Shown: in pieces, positions 9,262 to 43,272 of the stretch
Layout: each line of letters begins with the position of its first letter
Position numbering within the stretch: the first letter of the stretch is position 1
IMG/VR virus record: IMGVR_UViG_2681813201_000019
Length of the DNA: 43,972 nt
DNA from: a virus
Taxonomy: Duplodnaviria; Heunggongvirae; Uroviricota; Caudoviricetes
Reading direction: 5' to 3' (one strand)
The notes under the pieces: model-generated
Seen by the model: the letters and a program-made list of their open reading frames with translations, nothing else
Told to the model about the DNA's origin: nothing
Database searches by the model: none
Translations under genes and position numbers: made by a program

Positions 9262-9271
9262 CAGGTGCTTT

Positions 9272-16068: not shown

Positions 16069-16072
16069 ACCA

Positions 16073-16384
16073 ATGACGACACCAACCAGACGGATAAGTT
16101 TCTATCTGAAGCCCGCCGCCGTCAAGAACGAAGGCAAAGCATGCGCCTGGCTGGACAGCCTTACACCAGAAGCCCGCAAAAGTGGTCAACGTGTGGCTTT
16201 TCTGGCCGGACTGGCACTTATGAAAATTAATCCGGCAGAGGCTTACCGACTGGCTGCATGGGCTGACGATGAAGCGTTATCCCTGACACAAACCAGGACA
16301 GAACGCCCCGTGTCACAGCCAGCACCAACCGCACAGATAACCAGTCAGATGGCCGGAAATATCCGGGCGTTATTTCCCGAATAA
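16073..16384 (+). CDS. parR: ParR-like centromere-binding protein
   Basis: 103 aa from the internal ATG with AAGGAG Shine-Dalgarno; RRISFYLKP...ACAWLDSL...AFLAGLAL...NIRALFPE parallels R1 ParR (RRTIAFKLNP...VCDTLDSI...AALTAGLAL...ILRSLFPKE). Confidence 0.7.
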   Translation: MTTPTRRISFYLKPAAVKNEGKACAWLDSLTPEARKSGQRVAFLAGLALMKINPAEAYRLAAWADDEALSLTQTRTERPVSQPAPTAQITSQMAGNIRALFPE

Positions 16385-16447
16385 CACAACATCAGGGCGC
16401 ATCCGCCCTGATGACTTTAACCCGGGAACATAAACAAGGGGGACACA

Positions 16448-21410: not shown

Positions 21411-21564
21411 TGCTCCCCCTGAGTAATTACAGGAAGATTACCCGCGAGCGAAACTGTTCTCCTTAACCCTCTGTTCTGGCCGTTTTCTTACAACAAAAGC
21501 CCTTTGTATCAGCCTGTTACGCTTTGCCATCATGACTGAAGAACCAGTCAGAGGGGCAAAAACT
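21411..21564. promoter_or_regulatory. Divergent late promoter region between P and O
   Basis: Intergenic region between divergently transcribed PQ and ONMLX operons; by analogy with P2 these are Ogr-dependent late promoters; no clean TGT-N12-ACA element seen by eye. Confidence 0.35.
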
Positions 21565-26391: not shown

Positions 26392-26845
26392 TTCCCTGCG
26401 TGAAGCCATGACCCGTTCATGCCGATGGTGTCAGGCCAACCCGGAAAAATTCACCATTTTCGTGGAGAGCGGCAACATTGAAACGACCGGAGAAACGCCC
26501 TCGTTTGTTTACCGCTATCAGATGGTGATGTTTGTCATGGATTACGCCGGGGAGCTGGACGACCTCACGCTGCCGCTACTGGCGTGGTTATCCGAAAATC
26601 AGCCACAGTTGTTGCTCAATCCGGAGCGTAATCAGGACATCAAATTCTCCGCCGTTATCAATGACGATGACAGCGCCGATCTCCTGTTTACGCTCCCCCT
26701 GCGGGAACGCGTTCGCATCACGCGCAGCAGTCAGGGCACACCGCAGGCAGAACACCTGCCTGAGCCAAAACCCCGCCTGCCATCTTCCGAAGGCGACTGG
26801 TCGCATGTATTCCAGGATGTGACGTGGGGTGAAAGCGATGGATAA
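26378..26845 (+). CDS. R: Tail completion protein (gpR)
   Basis: 155 aa, position and size as P2 gpR. Confidence 0.75.
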   Translation: MLKTDSLREAMTRSCRWCQANPEKFTIFVESGNIETTGETPSFVYRYQMVMFVMDYAGELDDLTLPLLAWLSENQPQLLLNPERNQDIKFSAVINDDDSADLLFTLPLRERVRITRSSQGTPQAEHLPEPKPRLPSSEGDWSHVFQDVTWGESDG

Positions 26846-27473
26846 GGCATTCACCCGCGTGGATGAAACCTTTGAGGCCATCCGCGACAGCCTGAATCAG
26901 CAGGCCATCAATAACATCGCCAGAAAGCTGGCACAGGATTTACGCCGCGCCCAGCAGGCGCGTATCCGGTCACAGAAAGCGCCGGACGGGACCGCGTGGA
27001 CACCACGCAGACGCCGCGTAACCCGGATACAGGAACGCATTCGCTTTATCTGGAATAACGAAGCACGCACGCTGAAAAACTGGCATCACGACACGGGGAA
27101 ATACGGGCGAACCATTACCGGGTGGGATGAGGATAAAAACAATATCCGCACGTTTTACCGGGATGACATCGACCGTTTTCTGGAAATACGCACCCGGCGC
27201 ATCAACCAGGACAGCACAAAGCGCGTCCCCATGTTCGTAAAACTGCGCACCGCCCGCTACCTGAAAGCCCGTGCAGATGCTTCCGGTGTGACGGTGGGTT
27301 ACAGCGGCGTGGCCGCACGTATTGCACGCGTTCATCAGTTCGGTGAGCGCGATCAGGTTGCGCCGGGCATTTTCACCGATTACCCGGTACGTGAGCTGCT
27401 GGGTATCAGCCAGGCAGATGAGCGCCTGATTTATAACACGGTGCTGGGCCGGATTGCGGAGGCTGTACGGTGA
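26829..27473 (+). CDS. S: Tail completion / virion morphogenesis protein (gpS)
   Basis: 214 aa in the P2 S position. Confidence 0.75.
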   Translation: MKAMDKAFTRVDETFEAIRDSLNQQAINNIARKLAQDLRRAQQARIRSQKAPDGTAWTPRRRRVTRIQERIRFIWNNEARTLKNWHHDTGKYGRTITGWDEDKNNIRTFYRDDIDRFLEIRTRRINQDSTKRVPMFVKLRTARYLKARADASGVTVGYSGVAARIARVHQFGERDQVAPGIFTDYPVRELLGISQADERLIYNTVLGRIAEAVR

Positions 27474-28051
27474 GCGCAGAACTCATGCGACTGCTGAGCA
27501 ACATCATCCGTACCGGGATCATCTCTGAAGTTGATGAGGAATCCTGGTGCGTGCGCGTTCGCAGCGGCGAACTGGAAACAGGCTGGCTGCGCTGGAACAC
27601 CACGCGCGCGGGAGCCTTCAATGTGTGGCTGCCGCCATCACCCGGCGAACAGGTGGTAATTGCCTGCATTGGCGGCAACCCGGAAACCGCCATGATAATT
27701 GGCAGCCTGTGGAGTGATGCCATTCCGGCCCCCGGCAAAAGCCTGAAAGAAATCGTGGTCAGCGCGCCGGATGGCGCGGTGTTCCGCTACGACGCGGACG
27801 CAGGCGCACTGAGCGCCAGCGGCATGAAAACAGCCACCCTGCAGGCATCCGTCAGCGTGACACTGGATACGCCCGTCGTGGAATGCACAGACCTTCTGAG
27901 AACGGCGACGCTTGACGTCACAAAAGGGGGAAAGATGAGCGGCAATATCACGCACAGCGGCGGCAATTTCACCTCAAACGGCATCACAGTGCATACGCAT
28001 AAACACGGTGGCGTTAAAGGTGGCAGCGATTCGACAGGAGGCCCGCAGTGA
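27470..28051 (+). CDS. V: Baseplate spike/assembly protein (gpV)
   Basis: 193 aa; glycine-rich C-terminus, P2 gpV-like. Confidence 0.85.
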   Translation: MSAELMRLLSNIIRTGIISEVDEESWCVRVRSGELETGWLRWNTTRAGAFNVWLPPSPGEQVVIACIGGNPETAMIIGSLWSDAIPAPGKSLKEIVVSAPDGAVFRYDADAGALSASGMKTATLQASVSVTLDTPVVECTDLLRTATLDVTKGGKMSGNITHSGGNFTSNGITVHTHKHGGVKGGSDSTGGPQ

Positions 28052-29823: not shown

Positions 29824-31974
29824 ATGAGTACCACAACACGAAAATTTAAAACCATTATCACTGATACTGGTGCCAAAAAATTAGCTCAGGCAGCCGCGCC
29901 AGGTGGTAATCCTGTCCGCCTGACTCACATGGCCGTGGGCGACGGTGGCGGCACGTTGCCCACACCAGACAGTAAGCAGACCCGTCTGGTGCATGAGGTG
30001 TGGCGACATACTGTTAATCGCGTCATCCTGGACGCAACACATCAGAACCGCATTATTGCGGAGCTGGTTATTCCTCCTGAAACGGGCGGATTCTGGATCC
30101 GGGAAATTGGTGTATTTGATGAGCACGGCGATTTGATCGCGGTGGGCAATACTGCCGAAAGTTACAAGCCAGCCGTTGCCAAAGGATCCGGACGTGCACA
30201 AACATTTCGCACCATTCTGACCGTATCCAGCACTGCCACCGTGGCGCTTACCGTGGATAACACCATGGTTATGGCCACAGTGGATTACGTGAATGACAAA
30301 CTGAAAGAACATGAACAGTCACGACGTCACCCGGACGCCTCGCTGACCGCAAAAGGCTTTGTTCAACTCAGTAGCGCCACCAACAGCACGTCTGAAGCAC
30401 TGGCCGCAACGCCGAAAGCGGTCAAGGCAGCCTATGACCTTGCTAACGGGAAATATACCGCACAGGACGCCACTACAGCGCGAAAAGGTCTTGTCCAGCT
30501 CAGTAGTGCCACCAACAGCACGTCTGAAACGCTCGCCGCAACACCAAAAGCGGTAAAGGCCGCGTATGATCTTGCTAACGCAAAATATACCGCTCAGGAC
30601 GCCACGACGGCACAAAAAGGGATTGTCCAGCTCAGTAGTGCCACCAACAGCACGTCTGAAACACTGGCCGCGACATCGAAAGCGGTTAAGGCAGTAATGG
30701 ATGAAACAAATAAGAAAGCCCCATTAAACAGCCCGGCGCTGACCGGAACGCCAACAACACCAACTGCGCGACAGGGAACGAATAATACCCAAATCGCAAG
30801 CACGGCTTTCGTTATGGCTGCGATTGCCGCCCTTGTAGATTCGTCACCTGATGCACTGAACACGCTGAACGAGCTGGCTGCGGCGCTGGGCAACGACCCG
30901 AATTTTGCGACCACCATGACTAACGCGCTTGCGGGTAAGCAACCGAAAGATGCCACCCTGACGGCGCTGGCCGGGCTTGCTACTGCGGCAGACAGGTTTC
31001 CGTATTTTACGGGGAATGATGTCGCCAGCCTGGCAACTCTGACAAAAGTCGGGCGGGATATTCTTGCGAAATCGACCGTTGCCGCCGTTATCGAATACCT
31101 CGGTTTACAGGAAACGGTAAACAGGGCTGGTAACGCCGTGCAAAAAAATGGCGATACCTTGTCCGGTGGGCTTACTTTTGAAAATGACTCAATCCTTGCC
31201 TGGATTCGAAATACTGACTGGGCGAAGATTGGATTTAAAAATGATGCCGATGGTGACACTGATTCATACATGTGGTTTGAAACAGGCGACAACGGCAATG
31301 AATATTTCAAATGGAGAAGCCGCCAGAGCACCACAACAAAAGACCTGATGACGCTGAAATGGGATGCACTAAATATTCTTGTTAATGCTGTCATTAATGG
31401 CAGTCTTGGAGTTGGTTCGACGAATGCGTTAGGTGGTAGCTCTATTGTTCTTGGTGATAATGACACCGGATTTAAACAGAATGGAGACGGTATTCTGGAT
31501 GTTTATGCTAATAGTCAGCGTGTATTCCGCTTTCAGAATGGAGTGGCTATTGCTTTTAAAAATATTCAGGCCGGGGATGGTAAAAAATTCACGCTATCCA
31601 GCTCCAACAACTCCACAAAGAATGCAATGTTTAATTTATGGGGTGCTTCAACCCGTCCAGTAGTTGCAGAGTTAGGCGATGAGGCAGGATGGCATTTCTA
31701 TAGCCAGCGAAATACAGATAACTCGGTAATATTTTCTGTTAACGGTCAGATACAGCCCAGCAACTGGGGGAATTTTGATTCACGCTATGTAAAAGATGTT
31801 CGCCTGGGTACGCGTGTTGTTCAATTGATGGCGCGTGGTGGTCGTTATGAAAAAGCCGGACACGCAATTACCGGATTAAGAATCATTGGTGAAGTAGATG
31901 GCGATGATGAAGCCATCTTCAGACCAATACAAAAATACATCAATGGCACATGGTATAACGTCGCACAGGTGTAA
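29824..31974 (+). CDS. H: Tail fibre protein (gpH): constant N-terminal part plus invertible C-terminal part
   Basis: 716 aa; N-terminus MSTTTRKFKTIITDTGAKKLA...MAVGDGGG...HEVWRH parallels P2 gpH; three tandem copies of a roughly 44-aa repeat (KGxVQLSSATNSTSExLAAT(P/S)KAVKA...) at aa 177-295. Confidence 0.85.
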   Translation: MSTTTRKFKTIITDTGAKKLAQAAAPGGNPVRLTHMAVGDGGGTLPTPDSKQTRLVHEVWRHTVNRVILDATHQNRIIAELVIPPETGGFWIREIGVFDEHGDLIAVGNTAESYKPAVAKGSGRAQTFRTILTVSSTATVALTVDNTMVMATVDYVNDKLKEHEQSRRHPDASLTAKGFVQLSSATNSTSEALAATPKAVKAAYDLANGKYTAQDATTARKGLVQLSSATNSTSETLAATPKAVKAAYDLANAKYTAQDATTAQKGIVQLSSATNSTSETLAATSKAVKAVMDETNKKAPLNSPALTGTPTTPTARQGTNNTQIASTAFVMAAIAALVDSSPDALNTLNELAAALGNDPNFATTMTNALAGKQPKDATLTALAGLATAADRFPYFTGNDVASLATLTKVGRDILAKSTVAAVIEYLGLQETVNRAGNAVQKNGDTLSGGLTFENDSILAWIRNTDWAKIGFKNDADGDTDSYMWFETGDNGNEYFKWRSRQSTTTKDLMTLKWDALNILVNAVINGSLGVGSTNALGGSSIVLGDNDTGFKQNGDGILDVYANSQRVFRFQNGVAIAFKNIQAGDGKKFTLSSSNNSTKNAMFNLWGASTRPVVAELGDEAGWHFYSQRNTDNSVIFSVNGQIQPSNWGNFDSRYVKDVRLGTRVVQLMARGGRYEKAGHAITGLRIIGEVDGDDEAIFRPIQKYINGTWYNVAQV
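31088..31113. other. gix/hix-like recombination site (left boundary of the invertible segment), inside gpH at codons 422-430
   Basis: TTATCGAATACCTCGGTTTACAGGAA; inverted partner at 33766..33791; the core ACCTCGGTTTAC resembles the Mu gix site (TTCCTGTAAACCGAGGTTTTGGATAA, as recalled). Confidence 0.6.
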
Positions 31975-31977
31975 ATT

Positions 31978-32505
31978 ATGCAGCATTTAAAAAATATTAA
32001 GTCCGGAAATCCAAAAACAAAAGAACAATATCAGCTAACAAAGAATTTTGATGTTATCTGGTTATGGTCCGAAGACGGTAAAAACTGGTATGAGGAAGTA
32101 AATAACTTTCAGGACGACACCATAAAGATTGTATACGACGAAAATAATATTATTGTTGCCATAACCAAAGATGCCTCAACGCTTAATCCCGAAGGCTTTA
32201 GTGTCGTTGAGATTCCAGATATAACAGCCAATCGTCGTGCCGATGATTCAGGGAAGTGGATGTTTAAGGACGGAACTGTGGTTAAGCGGATTTATACAGC
32301 AGACGAACAGCAACAACAGGCCGAATCACAAAAGGTCGCGTTGCTTTCTGAAGCTGAAAGCGTTATTCAGCCACTGGAACGCGCTGTCAGGCTGAATATG
32401 GCGACGGATGAGGAACGCACACGACTGGAGTCATGGGAACGCTACAGCGTTCTGGTCAGCCGTGTGGATACAGCAAATCCCGAATGGCCACAAAAGCCTG
32501 AGTAA
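31978..32505 (+). CDS. G: Tail fibre assembly chaperone (gpG), currently in the expressed orientation
   Basis: 175 aa; [21 protein letters not shown]...; paired with the tail-fibre C-terminus. Confidence 0.85.
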
Positions 32506-32510
32506 AAATT

Positions 32511-32530
32511 AAGGCCCGATATCGGGCCTT
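32511..32530. terminator. Palindromic hairpin between the convergent G and G' genes (possible bidirectional terminator)
   Basis: aaggcccgatatcgggcctt. Confidence 0.4.
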
Positions 32531-32533
32531 CTC

Positions 32534-33067
32534 TCATTCTGGTTGTTCGGGAAACGTTACTGGCAGGCTGGAGGTGTCTGTAGATTCGACTTTCTGCGCA
32601 AAGAGCATCCACTCGGTTAATTTCTGCTTATTCTCGTCGGAAATGATGCCCAGCCGTAGCTGTGAGTCCCATAGCTGGGTTTTATCCCTGACAAGTTGCA
32701 ACAGGCTTTGCTTTTCATTTTCCGCTTGTTGTCTCTGCTCTTCCTCGGTATAAGTTCGCTTTATCACTACGCCATCTTTGAACATCCATTTCCCCGAAAT
32801 ATCAGCCCGGCGATTTGCTGTAATATCAGGTAATTCAACGACGCTTGCGCCTTCCGGATTAATTGCTGAAACATCCTTTTCAATACAAATAATAACGCCG
32901 TTATGGTCATAGACCATTTTCAAAGTGTCTGGCTGGAAATTCTTTTGTTCCTCATACCAGTTTTTTCCATCATCTGAATAAAGCCATTTGATGTTAAATT
33001 GCTTTGTTAGCTGGTATTGCTCTTTTGTTTTAGGGTTGCCAGCAGTAATGTTTTTTAAGTGCATCAT
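32534..33067 (-). CDS. Alternative tail fibre assembly chaperone (G'), inverted orientation
   Basis: 177 aa; [24 protein letters not shown]... is a paralogue of gpG on the opposite strand inside the invertible segment. Confidence 0.8.
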   Translation of the reverse strand: MMHLKNITAGNPKTKEQYQLTKQFNIKWLYSDDGKNWYEEQKNFQPDTLKMVYDHNGVIICIEKDVSAINPEGASVVELPDITANRRADISGKWMFKDGVVIKRTYTEEEQRQQAENEKQSLLQLVRDKTQLWDSQLRLGIISDENKQKLTEWMLFAQKVESTDTSSLPVTFPEQPE

Positions 33068-33069
33068 CG

Positions 33070-33780
33070 TTAAATACTCCCCGCGTTATACCACGTCCCA
33101 TTAATGCAATACTGAATTGGCCTTGCCTGTGTTGTATCAATTAATTCATCACGGTTTCCGTTAACTGAACCCGTAACGACATAACCTGACCTGTCAGACC
33201 AGCCGGGACCATTCCATGTCTGAACAGATGACAGACCGCCAAGGCGAATACCTGTAATAAACCTTGAGTTACATTCTGCCTGCGTATATGCACCAACATC
33301 TCCCGCTGAAGGTTTTCGTGTCGTGGTATAGAAATCTGACCAACCTAATTCAAACCCATAACCATCACGAGCCGACCTGTAGGAAATGCCACCATTTTTA
33401 TAATTCACACGGAATTGTACGGCAGGACAGCTACCAGCATTTATATTAAAGTGAAGAATTAATACAGATGCACCACCAATCAGGGCGTTATATGCACCAC
33501 TATCCCAATTCCATCCAACGGATGTATCACCATTAACAGTATTACCTGTTTGTCGGAGTGCAAATGCATTGACATTTTTGGCACTAATTGAAATATCGCT
33601 AGAACCATCAAAACCAACTCCAGCAATTTTTCGTGCTGTTTTCAGCTTTGTTGCAGTAGCGGCATTGCCGGACAGTTCCCCAGAAAGGCCACCGCTGAAT
33701 GTTTGTCGATTGGTCCAGGTATTCGCTGTACTGAGTAACGGTATTTTCTCCCCGCTTGTGCCGAGTTCTCGTAAACCGAG
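33070..33780 (-). CDS. Alternative tail-fibre C-terminal cassette with no start codon (would fuse to the gpH constant region after inversion)
   Basis: Reading the minus strand from the gix-like site gives an open frame of about 232 codons (LGLRELGTSGEKIPLL...INGTWYNAGSI) in phase with the gpH crossover codons; ends with the same INGTWYN motif as the current gpH C-terminus. Confidence 0.6.
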   Translation of the reverse strand, partial: LGLRELGTSGEKIPLLSTANTWTNRQTFSGGLSGELSGNAATATKLKTARKIAGVGFDGSSDISISAKNVNAFALRQTGNTVNGDTSVGWNWDSGAYNALIGGASVLILHFNINAGSCPAVQFRVNYKNGGISYRSARDGYGFELGWSDFYTTTRKPSAGDVGAYTQAECNSRFITGIRLGGLSSVQTWNGPGWSDRSGYVVTGSVNGNRDELIDTTQARPIQYCINGTWYNAGSI

Positions 33781-33791
33781 GTTTTAAATAA
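33766..33791. other. gix/hix-like recombination site (right boundary of the invertible segment)
   Basis: TTCTCGTAAACCGAGGTTTTAAATAA, inverted relative to 31088..31113 and just upstream of the invertase gene. Confidence 0.6.
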
Positions 33792-33827
33792 TGGCCGTTT
33801 CTGGCCTGCATGGCATGATTTGCGCTT

Positions 33828-34445
33828 TTGGACGGGAGATTCAGTGTGCTGATTGGCTATGTAAGGGTATCAACAAATGACCAGAATACAGACCTGCAAC
33901 GAAACGCTCTTGTTTGTGCAGGATGTGAACAAATATTTGAAGATAAATTAAGCGGGACAAAGACAGACCGACCGGGATTAAAACGCGCTTTAAAGCGCCT
34001 TCAAAAAGGTGACACGCTGGTTGTCTGGAAACTGGATCGCCTCGGGCGAAGCATGAAACATCTGATTTCTCTCGTCGGGGAACTACGGGAGCGAGGGATT
34101 AATTTTCGCAGTCTGACCGACAGCATAGACACATCTTCTCCAATGGGGCGTTTTTTCTTCCACGTGATGGGTGCCCTGGCTGAAATGGAACGTGAATTAA
34201 TTGTTGAACGTACACTGGCCGGGCTGGCGGCAGCGCGCGCAAGGGGGCGCACAGGCGGACGTCGACCGAAGCTGACAAAAGAACAGCATGAGCAAATAGC
34301 AAGGCTAATCAAAAACGGGCACGACAGAAAACAACTGGCAATAATTTACGGCATTGGCACATCGACGATTTATCGTTATCACCCTGTAGGCGATATACAG
34401 ACTGAAGAAACAACCGGGCAGACTCAGGAAAATGAAAACCGCTAA
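33828..34445 (+). CDS. Serine DNA invertase (Gin/Hin/Cin/Pin family)
   Basis: LIGYVRVSTNDQNTDLQRNAL...GDTLVVWKLDRLGRS... and a C-terminal HTH; the true start may be the internal GTG (VLIGY...) 18 nt downstream. Confidence 0.9.
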   Translation: MDGRFSVLIGYVRVSTNDQNTDLQRNALVCAGCEQIFEDKLSGTKTDRPGLKRALKRLQKGDTLVVWKLDRLGRSMKHLISLVGELRERGINFRSLTDSIDTSSPMGRFFFHVMGALAEMERELIVERTLAGLAAARARGRTGGRRPKLTKEQHEQIARLIKNGHDRKQLAIIYGIGTSTIYRYHPVGDIQTEETTGQTQENENR

Positions 34446-34468
34446 TCTGACCATTAGCGGTTTTTGTG
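34439..34468. terminator. Hairpin plus T-run after the invertase gene (between convergent invertase and gpU)
   Basis: ccgctaatctgaccattagcgg followed by tttttg. Confidence 0.45.
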
Positions 34469-34473
34469 TTAAA

Positions 34474-34968
34474 TCAGAACAGCCCTTTAACTGAACTGGC
34501 CGCGCTGTTAAGAGATGATGTCACCTTATCTTTGAATCCGGACAGCATATCACTGAACGATGAGGATTGCAGGCGCTCCCGCAAATCCTCATCACAGCGT
34601 TCAAGAGTCAGTGAAAATTCTATCTTTTTCGCCTTACCGTAGCGATCAAACTCGGAGCGGGTCGTATTCGTTTCAGTCAGGACATACATGCCGTAAATCT
34701 GCCCGACGCCATCAATCAAAGGCCAGGGTCGTCCTGTATACGCCTGCGTGGTCAGCAGCGACAGCGACACTTCGCCACCTGTAATTTCAGGATAAAGCAC
34801 ACCAGAAAGAACGATGCGATCATCACCTGCACCGATATACTGCCAGCTTGCTGAACGGTTAACGCGTTCATTTTTCACATGCCGCCAGCTTTTGTTTTGC
34901 TGTAACTGCTGATGCGGCAGCGTGCGCAGCTCAAAAACAAACATGCCGTAGATCATCATCATGGCCAT
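34474..34968 (-). CDS. U: Tail protein U (gpU)
   Basis: RSWRHVKN.RVNRS...IGAGDD...LSGVLYPEITGG...GRPWPLIDGVG parallels P2 gpU. Confidence 0.85.
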   Translation of the reverse strand: MAMMMIYGMFVFELRTLPHQQLQQNKSWRHVKNERVNRSASWQYIGAGDDRIVLSGVLYPEITGGEVSLSLLTTQAYTGRPWPLIDGVGQIYGMYVLTETNTTRSEFDRYGKAKKIEFSLTLERCDEDLRERLQSSSFSDMLSGFKDKVTSSLNSAASSVKGLF

Positions 34969-34974
34969 GACTCC

Positions 34975-37818
34975 TCAATCTTTATCGTAAAAACTGCCAC
35001 GCCCGGCACGGGCGCGCCGTTCCATTTCTGCCCTGACCATTTCACCGACCAGTTTCGCCAGTTCGCGGGGATTCTGCGTAACAACGTTATGCAGATGAAC
35101 ATGAATTTCACCACCAAATCCGGAGGCAACAGGCTCCCGGTTACGGGAAGTTACAGGAACTGATGCCACTGGAGATCGTATAGCCTCCGCCACCGGGCGG
35201 GAGCTGGCCGCAACAACAGGGACCAGCGCCGGAGGCAGCGGAGCCGGGACCACGGGTGTGATATTAATTGCGGGGGCAGGCTTACTGACCTGCGCAATCT
35301 TCCGCTCCTGCCACTCCCCACGAACAGCAAGTGCTCGGGGCAGGTTTTTAAAGACAATATCGCCGGGGCCAATGCGTTTTTTCGTCTCCTCAACCAGCTT
35401 ACCTGTGTTATCAGCAATTTTGCTGAGTCTGCGCAGCGTACCGGTATTGCTGTCTGTGAGCGGTTTATTGTCTTTGGGGTTATCACCTCCGGTGCCATTG
35501 CCATTTTCCACAGGCTTCGGCGGATTGATTTTCGCCAGGTCCCCCTGAAGCAAGGCAACCTTGTCCTGAAGAATGGCCGCACGCTGTGCGTCTTCGATTT
35601 TCTTGCGCGCCCTTTCCGCTTCATCCGGAAGCACACCAAGCTTTTCAAGTATCCACGCCAGCGTATCCAGCAACATTTTTGCAGGTGTCAGAACAAGTTG
35701 TAACGCACCGCCAAGAACGTTACCGAATATCTCGCCAGCACTGGTACATTTATCCAGAGTTTCCTTGCTGGACTCCATCGGTGACAGCAGCGATTTAAAC
35801 CAGTTAAACACCTGGCTGATCCCACTCCCGATTGCGTCAAAAACAGGACCAAACCGTTCAAAGGTTTCGCGCAACGGGGTCAGCCTTTCCATAATCCCGC
35901 TGAACACCCAGGCAAAAAATGCCCTGATGGGATCCCAGTATTTCCAGATAAGAACGGCAGCTCCGGCAAGCGCAGCCACGATAAGACCAACCGGACTGAA
36001 CAACGCCCCGATAGCGCCTCCCAGTAAAGAAACGGAACCCGTCACCATTCCCCATAGTGCTGGCAGAACCCTGACAGCATTCATTGATCCGGTCAGGAGG
36101 GAAAAACCAAGACGCAGTTTTGCCAGCGGGCCAGCAAGCACACCAATAGCCAGCGACAACGAGCCAACCGTTGCAGTCATTGCCAGCAGTGCACCGCCTG
36201 CAATCAGTAGCTGGCGCGTCAGTGCGGGATGGGCCTGCGCCAGCGCCGTCACCTTTGATACCACACGCGTGAGCCACTGCGTGACAGAACGCAGCGGACC
36301 GTCAATCAGATCTGCAATGCGGATGCGCAACCCTTCCCATGCACTGCTGAGTGATTTCAGATCGCCGTCAAGGTTGTTGGCCATAACCTTTGCCGTGCGT
36401 TCAGCCTCACCGCGCGCGCCTTCAAGTTCTTTTCTCAGTTTGGGTAAGGAGCCGTCACCTGCCGCATCAACGAGGGCCATAAATGATGTGAAAGCCTCTT
36501 CTCCGGCAATGTCCTTAAAGAACGATACCCGGTCAACTTCCCCGTATTTGCGGGTAGCTTTATAAAGGTCAGCCAGCACATCCTCCATCGGGCGCATTTT
36601 GCCCCCGGCATCCGAGACAGACACGCCAAGCTCTTTCAGCGCCTCTGCTGCCGCCTTTGGCGGTGATGCCAGACGAGCCAGGCTGGCACGCATTGCCGTA
36701 CCAGCATCACTCCCCCTGATACCCATATTCGCCAGCACGCCCGCCATCGCTGCGGCCTGCTCCAGCGATATTCCCAGCTTACCCGCCACCGGACCTGCAT
36801 ATTTCATGGTTTCACCCAGTGCGCGAAGGTCAGTGTTGGTACGGGTAAACGCTGCGGTGAGTGTGTCGCCGACCCGGTCCATCTGGTCAGCAGAAAGACC
36901 GAACTGCGTCAGAATATTTGAGCCAATATCCGCCGTCTCACCGAGGTCCATACCGCCAGCCGTTGCCATGCTCAGTACGCCAGGGAGCGCAGCCTGAATG
37001 GCCTGTGGTGTAAAGCCAGCCATTGCAAGAAATGCCTGTCCACTGGCGGCATCGCCTGCGGTGAACTGCGTTTCAGAGCCAAGTTTTAACGCCTGCTCAC
37101 GCAGCGCCTTAAACTGCGGGCTGTTCTGGTCGATTCGCGTCAGTGCCTGAACGCGGGACATCTCTTTGCCGAACCCGATCGCAGGCTGCAAAAAACGCCC
37201 GGCAGCATAGCCGCCCGCCGCTGCCGCACCAATTGCCAGCGCACCACCTGTTTTCAGTTTTCCCGCTGTTTCCTGCGCGCGCGAATACCGCTCACGCGCC
37301 CGTGTTACACGCGCAAGCGCCTGCCGTTCGCGTTCAAGCTGGTTGTTGTACTGTTCGGTGCGTCTGATGGCCTGCTGGATGGTGTTATCGCTGCCTGTCA
37401 GGGAAATGCCGTGGCGTTTCAGCTCTCCGCCAAGCTCCCGCATTTTCTGAATTTCCCGTGTGCGCGATTCATTCAGGCGTTCAAGCCGGGTGCTTAACTG
37501 CTGCATCAGCTTTTGTTGTTTTTCGCTGAGCACTGTACCCGTGCGTTGTAACTGATTAAGGGCGTTAAGCTGGCGTCGTGCTTTCACGATGCCCGCATCC
37601 GCTTTACTGACAGCGTCACGGGCGCGCTCAAATGATCGCGCCTGACGCTCGAGATTTTTGATCGCCCCCTGCGTTCGCTGGATGGAGTCACCAAACTGCC
37701 CCATCAGGCGGCGGGCGTTTTCGGCAGGCCGGGTCAGCCTGTCAACGGCGCTGAAAGCGACCCGGATATCAAGAGTCTTCATTGTCTGCATTCCCGCTAC
37801 GAAGTGCCGCCCGCTCAC
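34975..37818 (-). CDS. T: Tail tape measure protein (gpT)
   Basis: 947 aa, coiled-coil and Ala/Gly-rich central region; lies between E/E' and U. Confidence 0.85.
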   Translation of the reverse strand: MSGRHFVAGMQTMKTLDIRVAFSAVDRLTRPAENARRLMGQFGDSIQRTQGAIKNLERQARSFERARDAVSKADAGIVKARRQLNALNQLQRTGTVLSEKQQKLMQQLSTRLERLNESRTREIQKMRELGGELKRHGISLTGSDNTIQQAIRRTEQYNNQLERERQALARVTRARERYSRAQETAGKLKTGGALAIGAAAAGGYAAGRFLQPAIGFGKEMSRVQALTRIDQNSPQFKALREQALKLGSETQFTAGDAASGQAFLAMAGFTPQAIQAALPGVLSMATAGGMDLGETADIGSNILTQFGLSADQMDRVGDTLTAAFTRTNTDLRALGETMKYAGPVAGKLGISLEQAAAMAGVLANMGIRGSDAGTAMRASLARLASPPKAAAEALKELGVSVSDAGGKMRPMEDVLADLYKATRKYGEVDRVSFFKDIAGEEAFTSFMALVDAAGDGSLPKLRKELEGARGEAERTAKVMANNLDGDLKSLSSAWEGLRIRIADLIDGPLRSVTQWLTRVVSKVTALAQAHPALTRQLLIAGGALLAMTATVGSLSLAIGVLAGPLAKLRLGFSLLTGSMNAVRVLPALWGMVTGSVSLLGGAIGALFSPVGLIVAALAGAAVLIWKYWDPIRAFFAWVFSGIMERLTPLRETFERFGPVFDAIGSGISQVFNWFKSLLSPMESSKETLDKCTSAGEIFGNVLGGALQLVLTPAKMLLDTLAWILEKLGVLPDEAERARKKIEDAQRAAILQDKVALLQGDLAKINPPKPVENGNGTGGDNPKDNKPLTDSNTGTLRRLSKIADNTGKLVEETKKRIGPGDIVFKNLPRALAVRGEWQERKIAQVSKPAPAINITPVVPAPLPPALVPVVAASSRPVAEAIRSPVASVPVTSRNREPVASGFGGEIHVHLHNVVTQNPRELAKLVGEMVRAEMERRARAGRGSFYDKD

Positions 37819-38005
37819 GCCAGCTAACCACTTCGCCGGGCGTCATCATGAAGATTTCGGCGGGCGACCAGTTAAAAATGGCGGCAATATCCGCCACCAG
37901 ATCTTCGATGTGCTCAAAGCACACCAGGGTGATTACGCTGCCGTCTCCTGCACGCTCTTCGCGCCAGAGTCTGGCTCGCTCATAAAATTTACAGCCACAG
38001 CGCAC
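37769..38005 (-). CDS. E' frame: extension of the tail assembly chaperone reached by a -1 frameshift (E+E' fusion)
   Basis: Open -1 frame overlapping the 3' part of E and the start of T, as in the P2 E/E' arrangement; an A7 run (about 38031..38037) and a TTTT slip site lie just upstream in the E frame. Confidence 0.4.
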   Translation of the reverse strand: MRCGCKFYERARLWREERAGDGSVITLVCFEHIEDLVADIAAIFNWSPAEIFMMTPGEVVSWRERAALRSGNADNEDS

Positions 38006-38307
38006 AACTGAATAAAATCGCGTGACGACATTTTTTTAATCATCACTTCATCCAGTCGTGGCGAGGTCACGCGAGGCAACAGCGTGAACATGGTATCCGC
38101 TTTCAGATTCAGCACATCAGACAGCGACAGACCACGCAGGGATCCAGCCTGCTCAATAGCCCCGGTGATCTCCACATACGTGATTTTTTCGCCACCACGC
38201 TCAATTGGTCGGGTCAGTTTTACGCCACGTTCGACAGCCATATCCTCAACTGCCGTCACATTATCCGCCACGGTGTTATTCCGGGTTTCAGTATCGATGT
38301 CTTTCAT
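37933..38307 (-). CDS. E: Tail assembly chaperone (gpE)
   Basis: 124-aa ORF between the tail tube and tape measure genes. Confidence 0.7.
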   Translation of the reverse strand: MKDIDTETRNNTVADNVTAVEDMAVERGVKLTRPIERGGEKITYVEITGAIEQAGSLRGLSLSDVLNLKADTMFTLLPRVTSPRLDEVMIKKMSSRDFIQLCAVAVNFMSEPDSGAKSVQETAA

Positions 38308-38362
38308 CTGTTGTCTCCTTTTCAGTCAGAGGCGACGCACTGCGCCGCCAGCATATTACTTA

Positions 38363-38875
38363 TCAGCCAAGCCCAAGCGCGGAACGGATGCGATCGGGCA
38401 CAATGTCCTTGCCGTCCTTCCGGTAAATGAAGTTCAGCAGGTCAATCTCCCACAACGGGCGATCGTTAACACTCAGCTTGTAGTAGGTGTTTTTAATGGC
38501 GTAAGTGTGTGATGTGGCTTCGCCCTGTTTGGCTTCCCCCATATCAATTTCCGTCACACGTCCGCGCATTTCGACTTCATACAGGTCGCTTTCTGCATCG
38601 GTGTAGTATTCACCCGCAAAACGCAGCAGCGTGCCGTCAATCGTGCCGCCATACTTAAGGAACAGCTCACGAACTGCGCCCCCCATGACAAAGCTCGCAT
38701 CAAGCGCGGAGTCGTCCAGACCGAGATCAATACTTACCGCACCCATCATGCCACCACCCCGGTAGCTGTCGGTTTTGCGCGTCAGCTTAGGCAGAGTGAC
38801 GGACGTCACCTTACCCACTTCGTTTTCACCATCCACAAACAGCGTAAAAAAGCGAAGATGTTTTGGCACAGCCAT
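38363..38875 (-). CDS. FII: Tail tube protein (gpFII)
   Basis: 170 aa, immediately downstream of the sheath gene. Confidence 0.85.
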   Translation of the reverse strand: MAVPKHLRFFTLFVDGENEVGKVTSVTLPKLTRKTDSYRGGGMMGAVSIDLGLDDSALDASFVMGGAVRELFLKYGGTIDGTLLRFAGEYYTDAESDLYEVEMRGRVTEIDMGEAKQGEATSHTYAIKNTYYKLSVNDRPLWEIDLLNFIYRKDGKDIVPDRIRSALGLG

Positions 38876-40059
38876 CAGGCACCTCCCAGCACCGCAAATG
38901 CGGGTTCAAAGTATTCATCAGTAAACGTCTGGTAAAGCTCCATGTCTTCCAGTGGCGGAACGGGCGTATATTTGTAGCGAATACGCACACGTCCCTGACG
39001 TAAATCCGTGGTGCTGTTATCCACCACGTCATACCAGCACTCCGCGCCAATCAGTTTCCCGGCAGTCACCAGTGAATCCAGTTTTGCCCTGATGGCACTG
39101 ATAACATCCTTCACATTCGCAGGCGTCAGTGGACTGTCGATGGTTTCAAACTGCGCTTCCGCAATTGAATCAGCCAGCACCTGTGCGGTTCGGGTATACA
39201 CCTCAAAGATGTAGGCGTTCGTTTCCGGTGTGCGGTTACCCCAGAAGCGGAACCCGTTGCGACGAATAATGGTCGTGATTTCTTTGTTGTTGAGGCTGTT
39301 GGCATCGCTGTCTTCGGCCTGCAACGACCAGAACACATGCCTGGACATTCCCAGCACATTTTTAACCGGAACGTTGGACAGCGATTTGTGCCAGCCCTGC
39401 TCATGGTCAATGTACGCACGAAGGCCGCACGCATAAGCAGGCGCGGGGAACGTTTCGTTTTTGCCACTTTTCGGGTTGTAGGCGATGAAGTCAGGCCATA
39501 AGAGCATCACCTCACGTTCGTTGAATTTCTGGCGGTAGGTAATCGCCTCAGCCATCGTGTTACAACCATGACATGTGGCATACACAAACGCGCGCAGTTT
39601 ACCTGCAATCACGCACAGGGATTTTGTTACCGCCTCCGTGTCCAGCTCCGGCGCGGCCAGAATACGCGGACGGTATCCGATGCTTTCATCCTGCTCTGCA
39701 ACAAGCAGCGCATACATCCCCGTATAGCTGCCGTCATCCTCAGAACCACCGATAACCAGTTGATCCTGCGTCTTTCCGTCTTCTTCTTTGTGTTCAGCCA
39801 CGCGAACGACGATCACCTTTGTGCTCACCTGGTCTGCGATGGCCTTAAGCGCACGATAAAGCGTCCCCGTTGTTCCGCATTTTCCCAGCACGTCATTGAC
39901 GCGGGTCAGCAGTGTGGGCTTGTTCAGCGGGAACAGCTCCGCGTCCGCATCATCCGCCGTTGCCACGATACCGATAACGCTGGAATCAACATCGTTAATC
40001 GCTGTTACCAGGTCGGTATTTTCCGTAACACGGGCACCATGAAAACGAGTTTCACTCAT
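38875..40059 (-). CDS. FI: Tail sheath protein (gpFI)
   Basis: 394 aa, contractile-tail sheath in size and position. Confidence 0.85.
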   Translation of the reverse strand: MSETRFHGARVTENTDLVTAINDVDSSVIGIVATADDADAELFPLNKPTLLTRVNDVLGKCGTTGTLYRALKAIADQVSTKVIVVRVAEHKEEDGKTQDQLVIGGSEDDGSYTGMYALLVAEQDESIGYRPRILAAPELDTEAVTKSLCVIAGKLRAFVYATCHGCNTMAEAITYRQKFNEREVMLLWPDFIAYNPKSGKNETFPAPAYACGLRAYIDHEQGWHKSLSNVPVKNVLGMSRHVFWSLQAEDSDANSLNNKEITTIIRRNGFRFWGNRTPETNAYIFEVYTRTAQVLADSIAEAQFETIDSPLTPANVKDVISAIRAKLDSLVTAGKLIGAECWYDVVDNSTTDLRQGRVRIRYKYTPVPPLEDMELYQTFTDEYFEPAFAVLGGA

Positions 40060-40216
40060 AGCTTCAGCCCCTTGTATCCGTTAAATGATTCGGCAACAAT
40101 CATCACCCACCACGCGCGTAATCTCACCCCTGCGCCGTTCTCCCGACCCGGCGACAACAAAAAGCAGTAACCCCCTCCGCACACACATGCGACCATGCCG
40201 CACAGGGAGGGAGCAG
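40060..40216. promoter_or_regulatory. Divergent promoter region between FI (leftward) and D (rightward)
   Basis: 157-bp intergenic region separating divergently transcribed late genes; a GGGAGGG Shine-Dalgarno precedes the D start. Confidence 0.35.
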
Positions 40217-41326
40217 ATGACCGACACCACCATGCAATTGCTCAGCCAGGGCACAGACCCCGTAAAAATGCCGGATTTTGATATTCTCGCGGAGGGTAAA
40301 ACGCTGTCCGGCGTGGCAGAGCGCCTGATGAGCCTGTCGCTGACCGACAACCGGGGATTTGAGGCAGACCAGCTCACCATCACGCTGGATGATGCGGATG
40401 GTCAGTTGCAGCTACCGCCACGGGGCGCGCGCCTGACGGTTCTCATTGGCTGGAAAGGCGAACCGCTGACAGAAAAAGGGTCTTACATTGTTGATGAAAT
40501 CGCACACGAAGGACCGCCGGACAGGCTGACTGTTTCAGCCAGAAGCGCAGATTTCCGGGATGAATTTAACGTTAAACGTGAGGTGTCCTGGCATGATGTG
40601 ACCGTTGAGCGTGTGGTATCCGCCATCGCTCATCGGTACGGTCTGAAACCGCAAATCAGCGAAATGCTGATGGATATCGAAATCGACCACGCCGACCAGA
40701 CCGAAGAAAGTGACATGTCCTTCCTTACGCGCATGGCGGAAATGCTGGGCGCAATCACTACGGTAAAAAGCGGTAATCTGTTATTCATCATGCCCGGTGG
40801 TGGCGTGAACGCACAGGGCCAGCCGTTGCCATCGTTCGCCATCACGCGCAGCAGCGGCGATCGCCATCAGTTCCGCATTGCTGACCGCGAGGCGTATACG
40901 GGGGTACGCGCCTACTGGCTTGATCTTAATTACGGGAAAAAGAAAAAAGTCAGCGTGAAACGCCGCAAACCGCCAAAACCGAAAAAAGAGAAAAGCAGCA
41001 GCCGTGAAGGTGATTATATGGAAGGCGCGGAAGGCAATGTGTTTGTGTTACGCAAGACTTATCAGAACGAGCAGGCAGCAAGACGCGCAGCGGCGGCAAA
41101 GTGGCAACAACTACAACGCGGAGCCGCATCATTCTCCATCACGCTGGCACGTGGACGAGCAGAACTCTACCCCGAAATGCATGGCACGGTAACAGGATTT
41201 AAAAGCGAGATTGATAATCAGGACTGGATTATTGCAAAAGCCGAGCACACCATTGATAACAGCGGCTTTACCACGCAGCTTGAGCTTGAGGCAAAAATCC
41301 CGGAATGGATAGCGGAAACAGAGTGA
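40217..41326 (+). CDS. D: Tail protein D (gpD); start at internal ATG (MTDTTMQLL...)
   Basis: About 370 aa, P2 gpD-like, upstream of ogr; the ORF-track start at 40085 lies inside the divergent promoter region. Confidence 0.8.
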   Translation: MTDTTMQLLSQGTDPVKMPDFDILAEGKTLSGVAERLMSLSLTDNRGFEADQLTITLDDADGQLQLPPRGARLTVLIGWKGEPLTEKGSYIVDEIAHEGPPDRLTVSARSADFRDEFNVKREVSWHDVTVERVVSAIAHRYGLKPQISEMLMDIEIDHADQTEESDMSFLTRMAEMLGAITTVKSGNLLFIMPGGGVNAQGQPLPSFAITRSSGDRHQFRIADREAYTGVRAYWLDLNYGKKKKVSVKRRKPPKPKKEKSSSREGDYMEGAEGNVFVLRKTYQNEQAARRAAAAKWQQLQRGAASFSITLARGRAELYPEMHGTVTGFKSEIDNQDWIIAKAEHTIDNSGFTTQLELEAKIPEWIAETE

Positions 41327-41368
41327 GCAACTTAGAATAGCGGCAGCACCACGTTAAAGGAGGTCGCT

Positions 41369-41629
41369 ATGTTCCGTTGTCCGCTTTGTGGCGCATCTGC
41401 CCGTATCCGCACCAGTCGTCCGGAAAATGATTCAAACACCGTGCGGCAAAAGTATTACCAGTGTAACAACCTGGAATGCGGCGTATGCTTCTCAACACTG
41501 GAAGCTTTCCATAAATTCACATCGAAACACGCCTCCGGCGTTCACTCATCAGAAGGTATCCCGTGGCATGAGCTGCCAGCTTCACACAGGGGAAACAATC
41601 AGATGAGTTTGCCTTTACCTCAGAATTAA
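41369..41629 (+). CDS. ogr: Ogr/Delta-family zinc-finger late transcription activator
   Basis: MFRCPLCGASARIRTSR...YYQCNNLECGVCF parallels P2 Ogr (MFHCPLCQHAAHARTSR...YHQCQNVNCSATF). Confidence 0.85.
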   Translation: MFRCPLCGASARIRTSRPENDSNTVRQKYYQCNNLECGVCFSTLEAFHKFTSKHASGVHSSEGIPWHELPASHRGNNQMSLPLPQN

Positions 41630-41818
41630 CAGGCAGAATTGCCGGAGTAACAAAAAAGCGATAGATTACGTGCGGGTGCCTTTCGGCTGATGGTCGGAGG
41701 GAATACCCGAAGGCCGGATGTGGAAAGGCCCCGGAAAACATTTCTGTTTAACCGAGGCCCTAACCCGTCAACCTAGCAAGTGATAGGTTAGCGCCTCTCC
41801 AACAAAGGAGCAAGCGCT

Positions 41819-41959
41819 ATGTCGCAAAAATCGCTTACGGCCATCACGTTCTGCGTGACGGTAATCCTCATCATCTGGATGCTGCACGGTTCGCTGTGTG
41901 AAATACGGATGAGCTTCTGGGGAGCGGAGTTTGCGGCGTTCTTACAGTGTAAGCAGTAA
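41819..41959 (+). CDS. Hok/Gef-family type I toxin (46 aa)
   Basis: MSQKSLTAITFCVTVILIIWMLHGSLCEIRMSFWGAEFAAFLQCKQ has one transmembrane helix and the SLCEIR...AAF signature of Hok; a long structured leader lies upstream and a terminator downstream. Confidence 0.7.
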   Translation: MSQKSLTAITFCVTVILIIWMLHGSLCEIRMSFWGAEFAAFLQCKQ

Positions 41960-42046
41960 GGAAACCGCGACGGGGAGGCAACTCCCCGTCAATCGGTTGC
42001 CAGGGTAAGGCCGATAAGGCACCCTATCTCATAGGCATGAATAACA

Positions 42047-42080
42047 ACCCCGCAGCGTAAAAACTGCGGGGTTTCTTTTT
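42047..42080 (+). terminator. Rho-independent terminator of the hok-like transcript
   Basis: ccccgcagcgtaaaaactgcgggg followed by tttcttttt. Confidence 0.5.
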
Positions 42081-42901: not shown

Positions 42902-43025
42902 ACAAAAAAACCACCCGAAGGTGGTTTCACGACACTGCTTATTGCTTTGATTTTATTCTTATCTTTCCCATGGTACCCGGAGCGGGACTTGAACCCGCAC
43001 AGCGCGAACGCCGAGGGATTTTAAA
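42902..43025. repeat. att direct repeat, right copy (overlaps the functional leuZ 3' half and its terminator)
   Basis: Identical to 5703..5826 except for one base in the terminator loop. Confidence 0.85.
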
Positions 43026-43057
43026 TCCCTTGTGTCTACCGATTCCACCATCCGGGC
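42971..43057 (-). tRNA. leuZ: tRNA-Leu (anticodon UAA-type)
   Basis: Minus-strand 87-nt sequence gcccggatggtggaatcggtagacacaagggatttaaaatccctcggcgttcgcgctgtgcgggttcaagtcccgctccgggtacca; last gene of the pgsA-glyW-cysT-leuZ cluster. Confidence 0.95.
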
Positions 43058-43069
43058 TCGGGAAGAAAG

Positions 43070-43143
43070 TGGAGGCGCGTTCCGGAGTCGAACCGGACTA
43101 GACGGATTTGCAATCCGCTACATAACCGCTTTGTTAACGCGCC
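43070..43143 (-). tRNA. cysT: tRNA-Cys (GCA)
   Basis: Minus-strand 74 nt ggcgcgttaacaaagcggttatgtagcggattgcaaatccgtctagtccggttcgactccggaacgcgcctcca. Confidence 0.95.
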
Positions 43144-43196
43144 AAATTCTTCAGGCCTTTCAGCCAGACATCCGCTGACGCCGATGTCTTTTAAAC

Positions 43197-43272
<76 letters not shown>

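Follow-up and report, generated by a model that had tools for sequence, protein, structure and literature searches.

Inverted order of the FI–U tail genes relative to D and ogr in a P88-like prophage: a lineage-typical layout among P2-like phages

In the window considered here (the whole analysed stretch of 43,972 nucleotides, which carries a P2-like prophage), the tail genes FI to U lie on the minus strand and the genes D and ogr on the plus strand, which according to Pfam, PGAP and the P2 record is inverted relative to P2. The first-pass annotation had noticed this arrangement and read it as a rearrangement of this element that uncoupled D and ogr from the tail operon. The locus raises two questions: whether the inversion is peculiar to this prophage, and whether D is still subject to late control.

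Layout of the tail block, D and ogr

Judged from its sequence, the element is a P88-like prophage of the genus Xuanwuvirus (Peduoviridae). A total of 31.1 kb (31,095 bases) is collinear with P88 at a mean identity of 95.2 %, and the P88-aligned share amounts to ~0.82 of the roughly 36-kb prophage, which places it within Xuanwuvirus, above the ICTV genus level of ~70 % identity × coverage (nucleotide similarity to the type phage over the whole genome). The Xuanwuvirus order of the late region, including FI on the minus strand next to D on the plus strand, is shared by the window.

The window contains a cluster of homologues of all F-operon genes (FI, FII, E/E', T, U, D) according to Pfam, tblastn against P2 and PGAP. 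Gene starts (Table 1) were compared with the PGAP annotation of an identical prophage in Escherichia coli O145:H28 (RM12581), whose gene identities and strands agree with the Pfam-based assignments. U, T, E/E', FII and FI occupy the minus strand from 34474 to 40059, D and ogr the plus strand from 40217 to 41629. The open reading frame of gpT extends beyond its PGAP start to a GTG at 37818, gpE yields a weak Pfam match below the cut-off (Phage_TAC_7, 4.4e-4), FI is 46 % identical to P2 FI, and the start of D is the same in PGAP and in P88-type annotations. In the P2-type F operon, D directly follows U on the same strand and is co-transcribed from pF; here, it occupies the opposite strand and diverges from FI. 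The intergenic region described earlier between the two genes does exist. Since FI–U is inverted, D and ogr cannot belong to the FI–U transcription unit. No RNA families were found by Rfam between 34 and 42 kb. The layout is a matter of gene order and carries no statistical signal, so that chance is no issue.

Table 1 Coordinates of features in the window
Feature	Position	Strand	Remarks
Second Ogr-type box copy	21473–21494		divergent P/O intergenic region
Gin/Pin-type serine DNA invertase	33846–34445	+	Pfam Resolvase 1.5e-50 and HTH_7; PGAP start 33846
Bidirectional intrinsic-terminator-like hairpin	34435–34464		convergent invertase/U junction; left boundary of block
gpU, tail protein	34474–34968	−	Pfam Phage_P2_GpU 5.5e-39; PGAP start 34962
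gpT, tape measure	34975–37782	−	Pfam PhageMin_Tail 3.7e-58; PGAP start 37782
E' part of E+E' frameshift chaperone	37769–37924	−	PGAP 'GpE family phage tail protein'; P88 gp46
gpE, tail assembly chaperone	37933–38307	−	position matches P2 E
gpFII, tail tube	38363–38875	−	Pfam Phage_tube 7.5e-47
gpFI, tail sheath	38875–40059	−	Pfam Phage_sheath_1, Gp18_domIII_N, sheath_1C
FI/D divergent intergenic region	40060–40216		157 bp
Candidate −10 of P_F, GATGAT	40099–40104	−	46 bp from box centre; predicted start near 40092
Ogr-type box, GTTCT-N12-ACAAC (core TCT-N12-ACA)	40137–40158		centre 40147.5
Candidate −10 of P_D, GACCAT	40191–40196	+	46 bp from box centre; predicted start near 40203
gpD, late control D/baseplate hub, 369 aa	40217–41326	+	Pfam Phage_GPD 4.4e-17
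Possible −10 of ogr's own promoter, TAGAAT	41333–41338	+	in 42-bp D–ogr spacer
ogr, late transcription activator, 86 aa	41369–41629	+	Pfam Ogr_Delta 5.1e-14

Distribution and origin of the inverted order

Alignment with P2 and its relatives, proposed earlier as a check, bears out the orientation: at the nucleotide level, an FI fragment (39230–39567) aligns to P2 in reverse and H/G forward, and positions 33400–42000 (8.6 kb) are collinear in one piece, at 94–98 % identity, with P88, P884B11, Citrobacter phage phiSM, 520873, 500465-2, PhiR44_2 and Chuche. The annotated strands of the Xuanwuvirus relatives are the same as in the window, and Senquatrovirus SEN5 and Reginaelenavirus Kp4871-3 are also inverted. 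Searches by tblastn revealed FI on the minus and D on the plus strand in all 43 determinable GTDB species-representative loci, distributed over ~20 Enterobacterales genera and with 65–99 % identity to the D of the window, and in 80 of 80 IMG/VR loci; the canonical order occurred in none of these 123 loci, which were retrieved via peptide words from the window's D and are relatives by construction. Of 5426 complete E. coli genomes, 1374 (25 %) contain the FI/D junction, which is 100 % identical in several independent complete O145:H28 genomes. Canonical order was found in P2, Wadgaonvirus, Kapieceevirus, Elveevirus, Arsenicumvirus, Kisquinquevirus, Baylorvirus and Vhmlvirus, the clade boundary being drawn from three inverted and eight canonical named genera, a subset of the 525 phage records in which D has a homologue. 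Next to Xuanwuvirus, Senquatrovirus and Reginaelenavirus, the clade with the inverted order contains many unnamed prophages.

These comparisons show that the order U-T-E'-E-FII-FI / D-ogr is fixed in, and inherited throughout, a large P2-like clade in Enterobacterales. Being the norm in the three named genera and in every related locus examined, an outcome that the first-pass annotation had named as refuting, the orientation is no rearrangement of this element, as had been supposed, but ordinary and lineage-typical. Two phages of this group, P88 and phiSM, are viable and form plaques (PMC5285337; PMC6456863), and the layout is already public in the annotated genomes of isolated phages; a literature search did not find the inversion described in the P88, phiSM, SEN4/5 or P2 hotspot papers.

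That the inversion is recent and strain-specific, or an error of assembly, as comparison with P2 alone might suggest, has virtually no probability in view of the identical junction in independent O145:H28 genomes, its frequency in E. coli, its presence in the virion-derived sequences of P88, phiSM and SEN5, and the uniform order of the GTDB and IMG/VR loci.

The first-pass annotation had placed one breakpoint at the terminator of the neighbouring invertase gene, which over 33771–34202 is 93–97 % identical to gin of Mu and D108. A hairpin does bound the block here. Located between the stop codons of the invertase and U, with a 12–15-bp stem preceded by an A-run and followed by a T-run, it was picked up on the minus strand by a terminator scan and can fold on either strand (dG −17.1/−15.7 kcal/mol, z −4.5/−4.1). 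It thus has the make-up expected of a bidirectional intrinsic terminator, a stable GC-containing hairpin with a T-run on each strand. The link to the invertase, in contrast, is incidental: most relatives have hairpins after U that are not homologous, whether an invertase is present or absent, and an invertase adjoins U in only 6 of 40 GTDB and 27 of 63 IMG/VR loci.

That this Gin-like invertase created the inversion, or still flips the FI–U block via secondary crossover sites as a programmed switch, could be suspected from the mere 29 bp between the end of its gene and the U stop codon, and is extremely unlikely. Its own sites, a 30-nt inverted pair (31084–31113 / 33766–33795), flank the tail-fibre cassette, and the segment 31084–33795 is its real target; at ≤3 mismatches, the crossover site recurs nowhere else in the window. 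Between 34446–34474 and 40060–40216 there are no inverted repeats, and no gix-like site flanks the FI–U block. One pair of 22 nt (34162–34183 / 40242–40263, 82 %) was rejected as a block-end repeat; it lies within the coding sequences of the invertase and D and is equalled by dozens of chance pairs. Segments inverted by Gin, Hin, Cin or Pin have crossover sites at their ends and occur in both orientations; the FI–U block displays neither, all 123 loci sharing one orientation. In addition, U lacks an adjoining invertase in 34 of 40 GTDB and 36 of 63 IMG/VR loci, and Wadgaonvirus 500465-1 combines the canonical order with an invertase directly upstream of FI. The inversion is, therefore, shown to be neither strain-specific nor an assembly artefact, and neither made nor switched by the invertase, which is a neighbour of the block and not its cause.

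In neighbour-joining (NJ) trees of both D and FI, calculated without bootstrap values, the 24 inverted taxa form a monophyletic group that branches from among the canonical ones. Since the inverted set forms one clade in both, the trees imply a single ancient inversion of the segment comprising the pF promoter, FI, FII, E, T and U in the ancestor of the clade. Several independent origins of the same order would be conceivable insofar as monophyly derives from simple NJ trees of just two proteins, but are highly improbable considering the long stem that carries the clade in each tree, the clade-wide homology of the intergenic box, its spacing and flanking blocks, and the gap in D identity to the window's D (at least 63 % in inverted, at most 53 % in canonical taxa).

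The FI/D intergenic region and late control of D

Late promoters dependent on Ogr/Delta are characterized by a partial dyad TGT-N12-ACA, centred near −55, in front of a −10 and without a good −35, and by activity requiring Ogr and the alpha subunit of RNA polymerase. A strict search for TGT-N12-ACA gave four matches in the window, none of them in late intergenic regions; the motif used in its place was the lineage's own, built from P/O, FI/D and 27 relatives. In the 44 kb, GTTCT-N12-ACAACAAAA has exactly two occurrences, both in divergent late intergenic regions (FI/D and P/O), and 0.4 matches are expected in the window at ≤2 mismatches. At both places the left half-site is TCT, one mismatch from the consensus TGT. 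Across 27 diverse FI/D intergenic regions, region length and internal blocks are conserved, and the box always measures 22 nt with a 12-nt spacer, its halves being conserved and the spacer sequence free (perfect GTTGT-N12-ACAAC in 12 of the 27). The distance from the FI ATG to the box ranges from 67 to 77 nt, and the pF boxes of canonical relatives are as far from FI as that of the window. Towards the D ATG, 56–60 nt were counted in 24 of 27 regions; the outliers (34, 67 and 82 nt) look like ATG mis-calls or truncation.

The P/O region served as internal comparator, its motif having been found post hoc. Here, the box is flanked at 46–47 bp by the −10-like hexamers TAATCT (21440–21435, −) and CATCAT (21528–21533, +). 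O most likely starts at 21565, which gives the 278 aa annotated for O of P88; from a start at 21532 the box would be too near, and the second ATG at 21565 restores the geometry. Beyond the box, the similarity between FI/D and P/O is not significant (score 21 versus a shuffle maximum of 25).

On these grounds, 40060–40216 is proposed to hold two back-to-back late promoters. The inversion would have moved pF's dyad-symmetric Ogr box close to D. Two divergent late promoters would now have this box ~55 bp upstream: P_F, reading leftward from FI to U and ending at the hairpin, and P_D, reading rightward through D and possibly into ogr. D would thereby stay under Ogr-dependent late control despite having left the F operon. 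The candidate −10 columns read GATTAT/GAATAT (P_F) and, preceded by a conserved CGCGCGCGCATG block, AACTAT/AATCAT (P_D) in the relatives; in the window, both proposed hexamers are weak, and hexamers of the NA..T type are common by chance.

For ogr, the 40–45 bp upstream of the gene, including TAGAAT, are conserved even where relatives carry 1–4 kb of cargo between D and ogr, and the TAGAAT position is equivalent to the annotated −10 of P2 ogr; ogr, therefore, probably keeps a promoter of its own.

Alternatively, the box could serve P_F only, with D (and ogr) transcribed from an Ogr-independent promoter and D uncoupled from late control. The weak D-side hexamer and a predicted D leader of only ~14 nt would fit such an arrangement, as would the apparent promoter of ogr and its frequent separation from D by cargo, which indicate that the units can be independent. 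Against it stand the tightly kept distance between box and D, the conservation of the CGCGCGCGCATG block and hexamer, and the absence of any sigma-70 promoter from 40060–40216 in a consensus scan, as is expected of activator-dependent promoters. Moreover, the box and D-side promoter of SEN5 together nearly duplicate the late P_V promoter cassette (~84 % identity over 49 nt; local alignment score 57 versus a shuffle maximum of 26). P2 gpD is a structural baseplate protein required alongside other tail proteins, which also argues against separate control. Uncoupling is accordingly regarded as rather unlikely. Of the earlier claim that D and ogr are uncoupled, the part that places them outside the FI–U transcription unit stands, whereas release from late control is improbable given the conserved Ogr-type box upstream of D.

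The box thus probably drives both the FI–U operon and D, and D is probably still under late control. That one inversion turned the unidirectional pF into a bidirectional promoter region, a single symmetric box activating FI–U as well as a short D(-ogr) unit, is slightly favoured; no description of such a bidirectional reading was found in the P88, phiSM or SEN4/5 papers. If true, this would be a natural case of an inversion tolerated because the activator site is symmetric, and the distance over which an Ogr-dependent promoter feeds back positively on ogr would shrink from ~6.4 kb to ~1.2 kb. The explanation as a whole, joining a single clade-wide inversion with the shared Ogr box, is considered likely. 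It provides a small testable prediction, namely that a symmetric activator site lets an inversion split an operon while late regulation is kept. In practical terms, the inverted order is a clean marker by which the clade of P88, SEN4 and Reginaelenavirus can be told from P2, 186 and other Peduoviridae, and annotators should not flag it as a rearrangement.

Comparison with known phage systems

Among the Xuanwuvirus phages (P88, P884B11, phiSM, 520873, 500465-2), content, order and strands of the tail/D/ogr region are those of the window at 94–98 % nucleotide identity; differences from P88-type phages concern the early region and the tips of the tail fibres, and the D–ogr spacer, empty in the window, bears cargo in many relatives.

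In the P2 record, a single strand carries FI, FII, E, E', T, U, D and ogr, with D inside the F operon. All P2 F-operon genes have homologues in the window (33–49 % amino-acid identity), and H/G is 91.5 % identical to P2. Likewise shared are an Ogr-type box at a matching distance from FI on its upstream side (P2, 83 nt; window, 89 nt) and the position of ogr after D with a −10 within the spacer. Unlike in P2, FI–U is inverted and D lies outside the operon, which requires the FI–U transcript to end at a terminator behind U (34435–34464) and not, as in P2, after ogr. The FI/D geometry, predicted solely from sequence and conservation with the box 46 bp from each −10-like hexamer, resembles that of P/O in this prophage and of P2 pP/pO, where one activator site (3057–3087), annotated for both promoters, lies between starts at 3016 and 3127, i.e., units ~110 bp apart.

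As in the Mu G and P1 C segments (Gin/Cin), the window combines gix-like inverted sites and a gin-like gene with alternative tail-fibre tips and chaperones. This Gin-like system spans the tail-fibre cassette only; the FI–U block lies outside it and is devoid of crossover sites.

Gene order and the invertible segment

The P2-like prophage in the window extends from int at its left to ogr at its right, beside genes for tRNA-Leu, tRNA-Cys and tRNA-Gly. In the P2 reference record FI, FII, E, E', T, U, D and ogr all share one strand, and D is listed in the F operon. In the window, Pfam assigned FI to U to the minus strand and D and ogr to the plus strand; a fragment of the window FI matched P2 in reverse orientation, while H/G aligned forward. 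The first-pass annotation was thus correct in describing the FI-U block as inverted relative to P2, and likewise in placing a divergent region between FI and D (40060–40216, 157 bp).

Coordinates of features in the window (PGAP coordinates from the 100 %-identical prophage of E. coli O145:H28 RM12581)
Feature	Position	Strand	Basis or remark
int	5933–6934		left end of prophage
isrK and C4 antisense RNA	11281–11478	+	Rfam; early region
parM/parR-like genes	15109–16400	+	early/replication region
P/O divergent late region	21411–21564		comparator
G	31978–32505	+	
G'	32534–33067	-	70 % complementary to G
Alternative H C-terminus	within 31084–33795	-	
Hairpin with A-run and T-run	34435–34464		left boundary; folds well on both strands
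Serine invertase	end 34445	+	Pfam
gpU	34474–34968	-	Pfam
Tape measure (T)	34975–37818; PGAP 34975–37782	-	Pfam; PGAP
E'	37769–37924		PGAP
E-type chaperone	37933–38307	-	Pfam
FII tube	38363–38875	-	Pfam
FI sheath	38875–40059	-	Pfam
gpD	40217–41326	+	Pfam (gene, strand); PGAP (coordinates)
D-ogr spacer	41327–41368		42 bp, empty
Ogr/Delta	41369–41629	+	Pfam
Hok/Gef-family toxin	41819–41959	+	downstream of ogr
Bidirectional hairpin	about 42046–42073		
tRNA-Leu(taa), tRNA-Cys, tRNA-Gly (leuZ-cysT-glyW)	42971–43272	-	beside right end; followed by pgsA/uvrC in RM12581

A link between the rearrangement and the invertase, at whose terminator the first-pass annotation placed one breakpoint, was not supported. 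A 30-nt inverted pair (31084–31113 and 33766–33795) brackets G, G' in the opposite orientation and the alternative C-terminus of H, which identifies 31084–33795, as judged from sequence, as a genuine Gin-type invertible tail-fibre segment and the invertase's own target; the 5' part of the invertase gene is 93–97 % identical to Mu/D108 gin. Further copies of the crossover site were found nowhere else in the window, and the FI-U block has no inverted repeats at either end. An invertase adjoins U in just 6/40 GTDB and 27/63 IMG/VR loci, and in Wadgaonvirus, with its canonical order, one lies directly upstream of FI. That the left boundary falls at the invertase terminator is therefore incidental. 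The FI-U block is not an invertible segment. The hairpin at this boundary can, by its predicted fold, terminate both invertase and FI-U transcripts; most relatives carry non-homologous hairpins 3' of U, with or without an invertase. H/G are 91.5 % identical to P2, versus 33–49 % (protein level) for the rest of the tail.

Distribution and origin of the inverted order

The region 33400–42000 aligns collinearly and without a break, at 94–98 % identity and with the same annotated strands, to Xuanwuvirus P884B11, Citrobacter phage phiSM, P88, 520873, 500465-2, PhiR44_2 and Chuche. P88 and phiSM are functional temperate phages that form plaques (PMC5285337; PMC6456863), so the inverted layout is fully compatible with virion production. 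Loci encoding gpD relatives, drawn from IMG/VR and from GTDB species represented by one genome each, were classified by tblastn with the window proteins. All 43 determinable GTDB loci (D identity to the window 65–99 %) had U, T, E, FII and FI on minus and D and ogr on plus, none being canonical; they derive from Salmonella, Edwardsiella, Serratia, Kluyvera, Erwinia, Enterobacter, Pantoea, Kosakonia, Citrobacter, Pectobacterium, Brenneria, Klebsiella, Raoultella, Yokenella, Rouxiella, Symbiopectobacterium and others. The same layout was found in 80/80 IMG/VR loci, and a 761-bp FI/D junction probe matched 1374 of 5426 complete E. coli genomes, at least 80 % of it being covered in one place in 1358 of these. 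Collinear phages, both sets of loci and the E. coli genomes together rule out a rearrangement of the window element itself.

Two side observations concern this survey. The sole irregular locus among about 125, L109 (IMGVR_UViG_2654587728_000014, 430–7612), contains T, U and an invertase each way round, together with a truncated T and a second copy of the invertase gene; either its two invertase genes took part in a rearrangement or the contig is chimeric. Two loci (L005, L046) with D genes 98–99 % identical to that of the window lie on contigs that carry the labels Vagococcus sp. and Planococcaceae (Firmicutes), likely enterobacterial DNA contaminating those assemblies.

Phage records with a D homologue numbered 13 at an identity of at least 90 %, 35 at 60–80 % and 477 below 60 %. 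From the upper bands, Senquatrovirus SEN5 and Reginaelenavirus Kp4871-3 are inverted; in the lower band, FI through U and D share a strand in all eight genera examined (Peduovirus P2, Wadgaonvirus 500465-1, Kapieceevirus, Elveevirus, Arsenicumvirus, Kisquinquevirus KS5, Baylorvirus and the non-Peduoviridae Vhmlvirus MAR). In neighbour-joining trees of D and FI (simple BLOSUM62 distances, without bootstrap), the 24 inverted taxa grouped as a single clade within the canonical ones. The parsimonious reading is that their common ancestor underwent one ancient inversion. The first-pass interpretation as a rearrangement is accordingly abandoned: the orientation is the norm of a P2-like subgroup and, on comparative grounds, an ordinary lineage character.

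Predicted late promoters of FI, D and ogr

After the inversion D would be out of reach of pF and would need a promoter within 40060–40216. Both divergent late regions of the window share the motif GTTCT-N12-ACAACAAAA, at 21473–21498 (P/O) and 40137–40162 (FI/D); the exact motif occurs at these two places only, 0.4 matches being expected at up to 2 mismatches. Among 27 distinct aligned FI/D regions of relatives (FI and D 60–99 % identical to those of the window), the right half-box GACAACAAA is near-invariant, the left one reads GTTGT, GTCTG or GTTCT, and the spacer, constant at 12 nt, is freely variable in sequence. The box lies 67–77 nt from the FI ATG and, in 24/27 regions, 56–60 nt from the D ATG. 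Twelve relatives have a perfect GTTGT-N12-ACAAC, matching the P2 late-promoter activator element TGT-N12-ACA, whereas the window's own box reads TCT-N12-ACA. As its distance upstream of FI equals that of the P2 pF site and of the boxes in canonical relatives, the box evidently moved along with the inverted segment.

Hexamers resembling -10 elements lie in conserved columns 46 bp from the box centre on either side (GATGAT, 40104–40099, minus strand; GACCAT, 40191–40196, plus strand), and the P/O box of the window has the same geometry. This geometry also matches P2, in which pP and pO share one annotated activator site (3057–3087) and have their starts 56 and 55 bp away from the centre of that site. 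In SEN5, box plus D-side shares about 84 % identity across 49 nt with box plus V-side of the S/V late promoter (alignment score 57 versus a shuffle maximum of 26), by which the promoter on the D side is recognisable as a late-promoter cassette. Both proposed -10 elements are weak, and D is predicted to have a leader of only about 14 nt. A single Ogr box probably drives both a leftward FI and a rightward D promoter, by which D would remain late-regulated. TAGAAT (41333–41338) and the 40–45 bp before ogr are conserved even in relatives with cargo between D and ogr, and the hexamer matches the annotated P2 ogr -10; ogr thus probably keeps its own promoter.

S and V overlap in the window (26829–28051), which has no separate pV promoter region and only two Ogr-type boxes within the prophage, so that in Xuanwuvirus the O operon may extend from O as far as G. 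SEN5 (L141) has a 157-bp S/V intergenic region (9262–9418) with its own box.

Accessory features and comparison with known systems

Many close relatives (L051, L071, L075, L076, L095, L102, L111, L125, L127 and other loci) carry 1–4 kb of highly variable cargo between D and ogr, bounded by repeated CAACTTAGA-type sequence and including SIR2+HerA (E=2.8e-155 and 7.6e-253), a PifA-like KAP NTPase, PDC-S06, and GmrSD-like, PIN and radical-SAM proteins; this spacer looks like an anti-phage defence hotspot. In the early region, the isrK (58.4 bits) and C4 antisense RNA (78.5 bits) matches lie side by side and adjoin a gene annotated 'derepression protein' in P88; they represent a P1/P7-type immunity RNA within a P2-like prophage. 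The parM/parR-like partition genes, recognised by homology to the gene that is annotated 'plasmid segregation protein ParM' in P88, are unusual in an integrating P2-like phage. The Hok/Gef toxin gene, with the bidirectional hairpin behind it, shares 84 % DNA identity with a stretch present in many Stx-converting phages, and the tRNA cluster is the probable attachment region.

P88 is collinear with the whole prophage over 31.1 kb at 95 % identity, and the element is assigned by sequence to the P88-like genus. It shares the defining features of the P2 F operon except that D is not co-oriented with U. No comment on the FI-U inversion or a bidirectional FI/D promoter was found in the searchable P88, phiSM, SEN4/5 and P2-hotspot literature, so the shared-box model would constitute a small prediction and no novel type of system; the inverted arrangement itself is already known from public annotated genomes.
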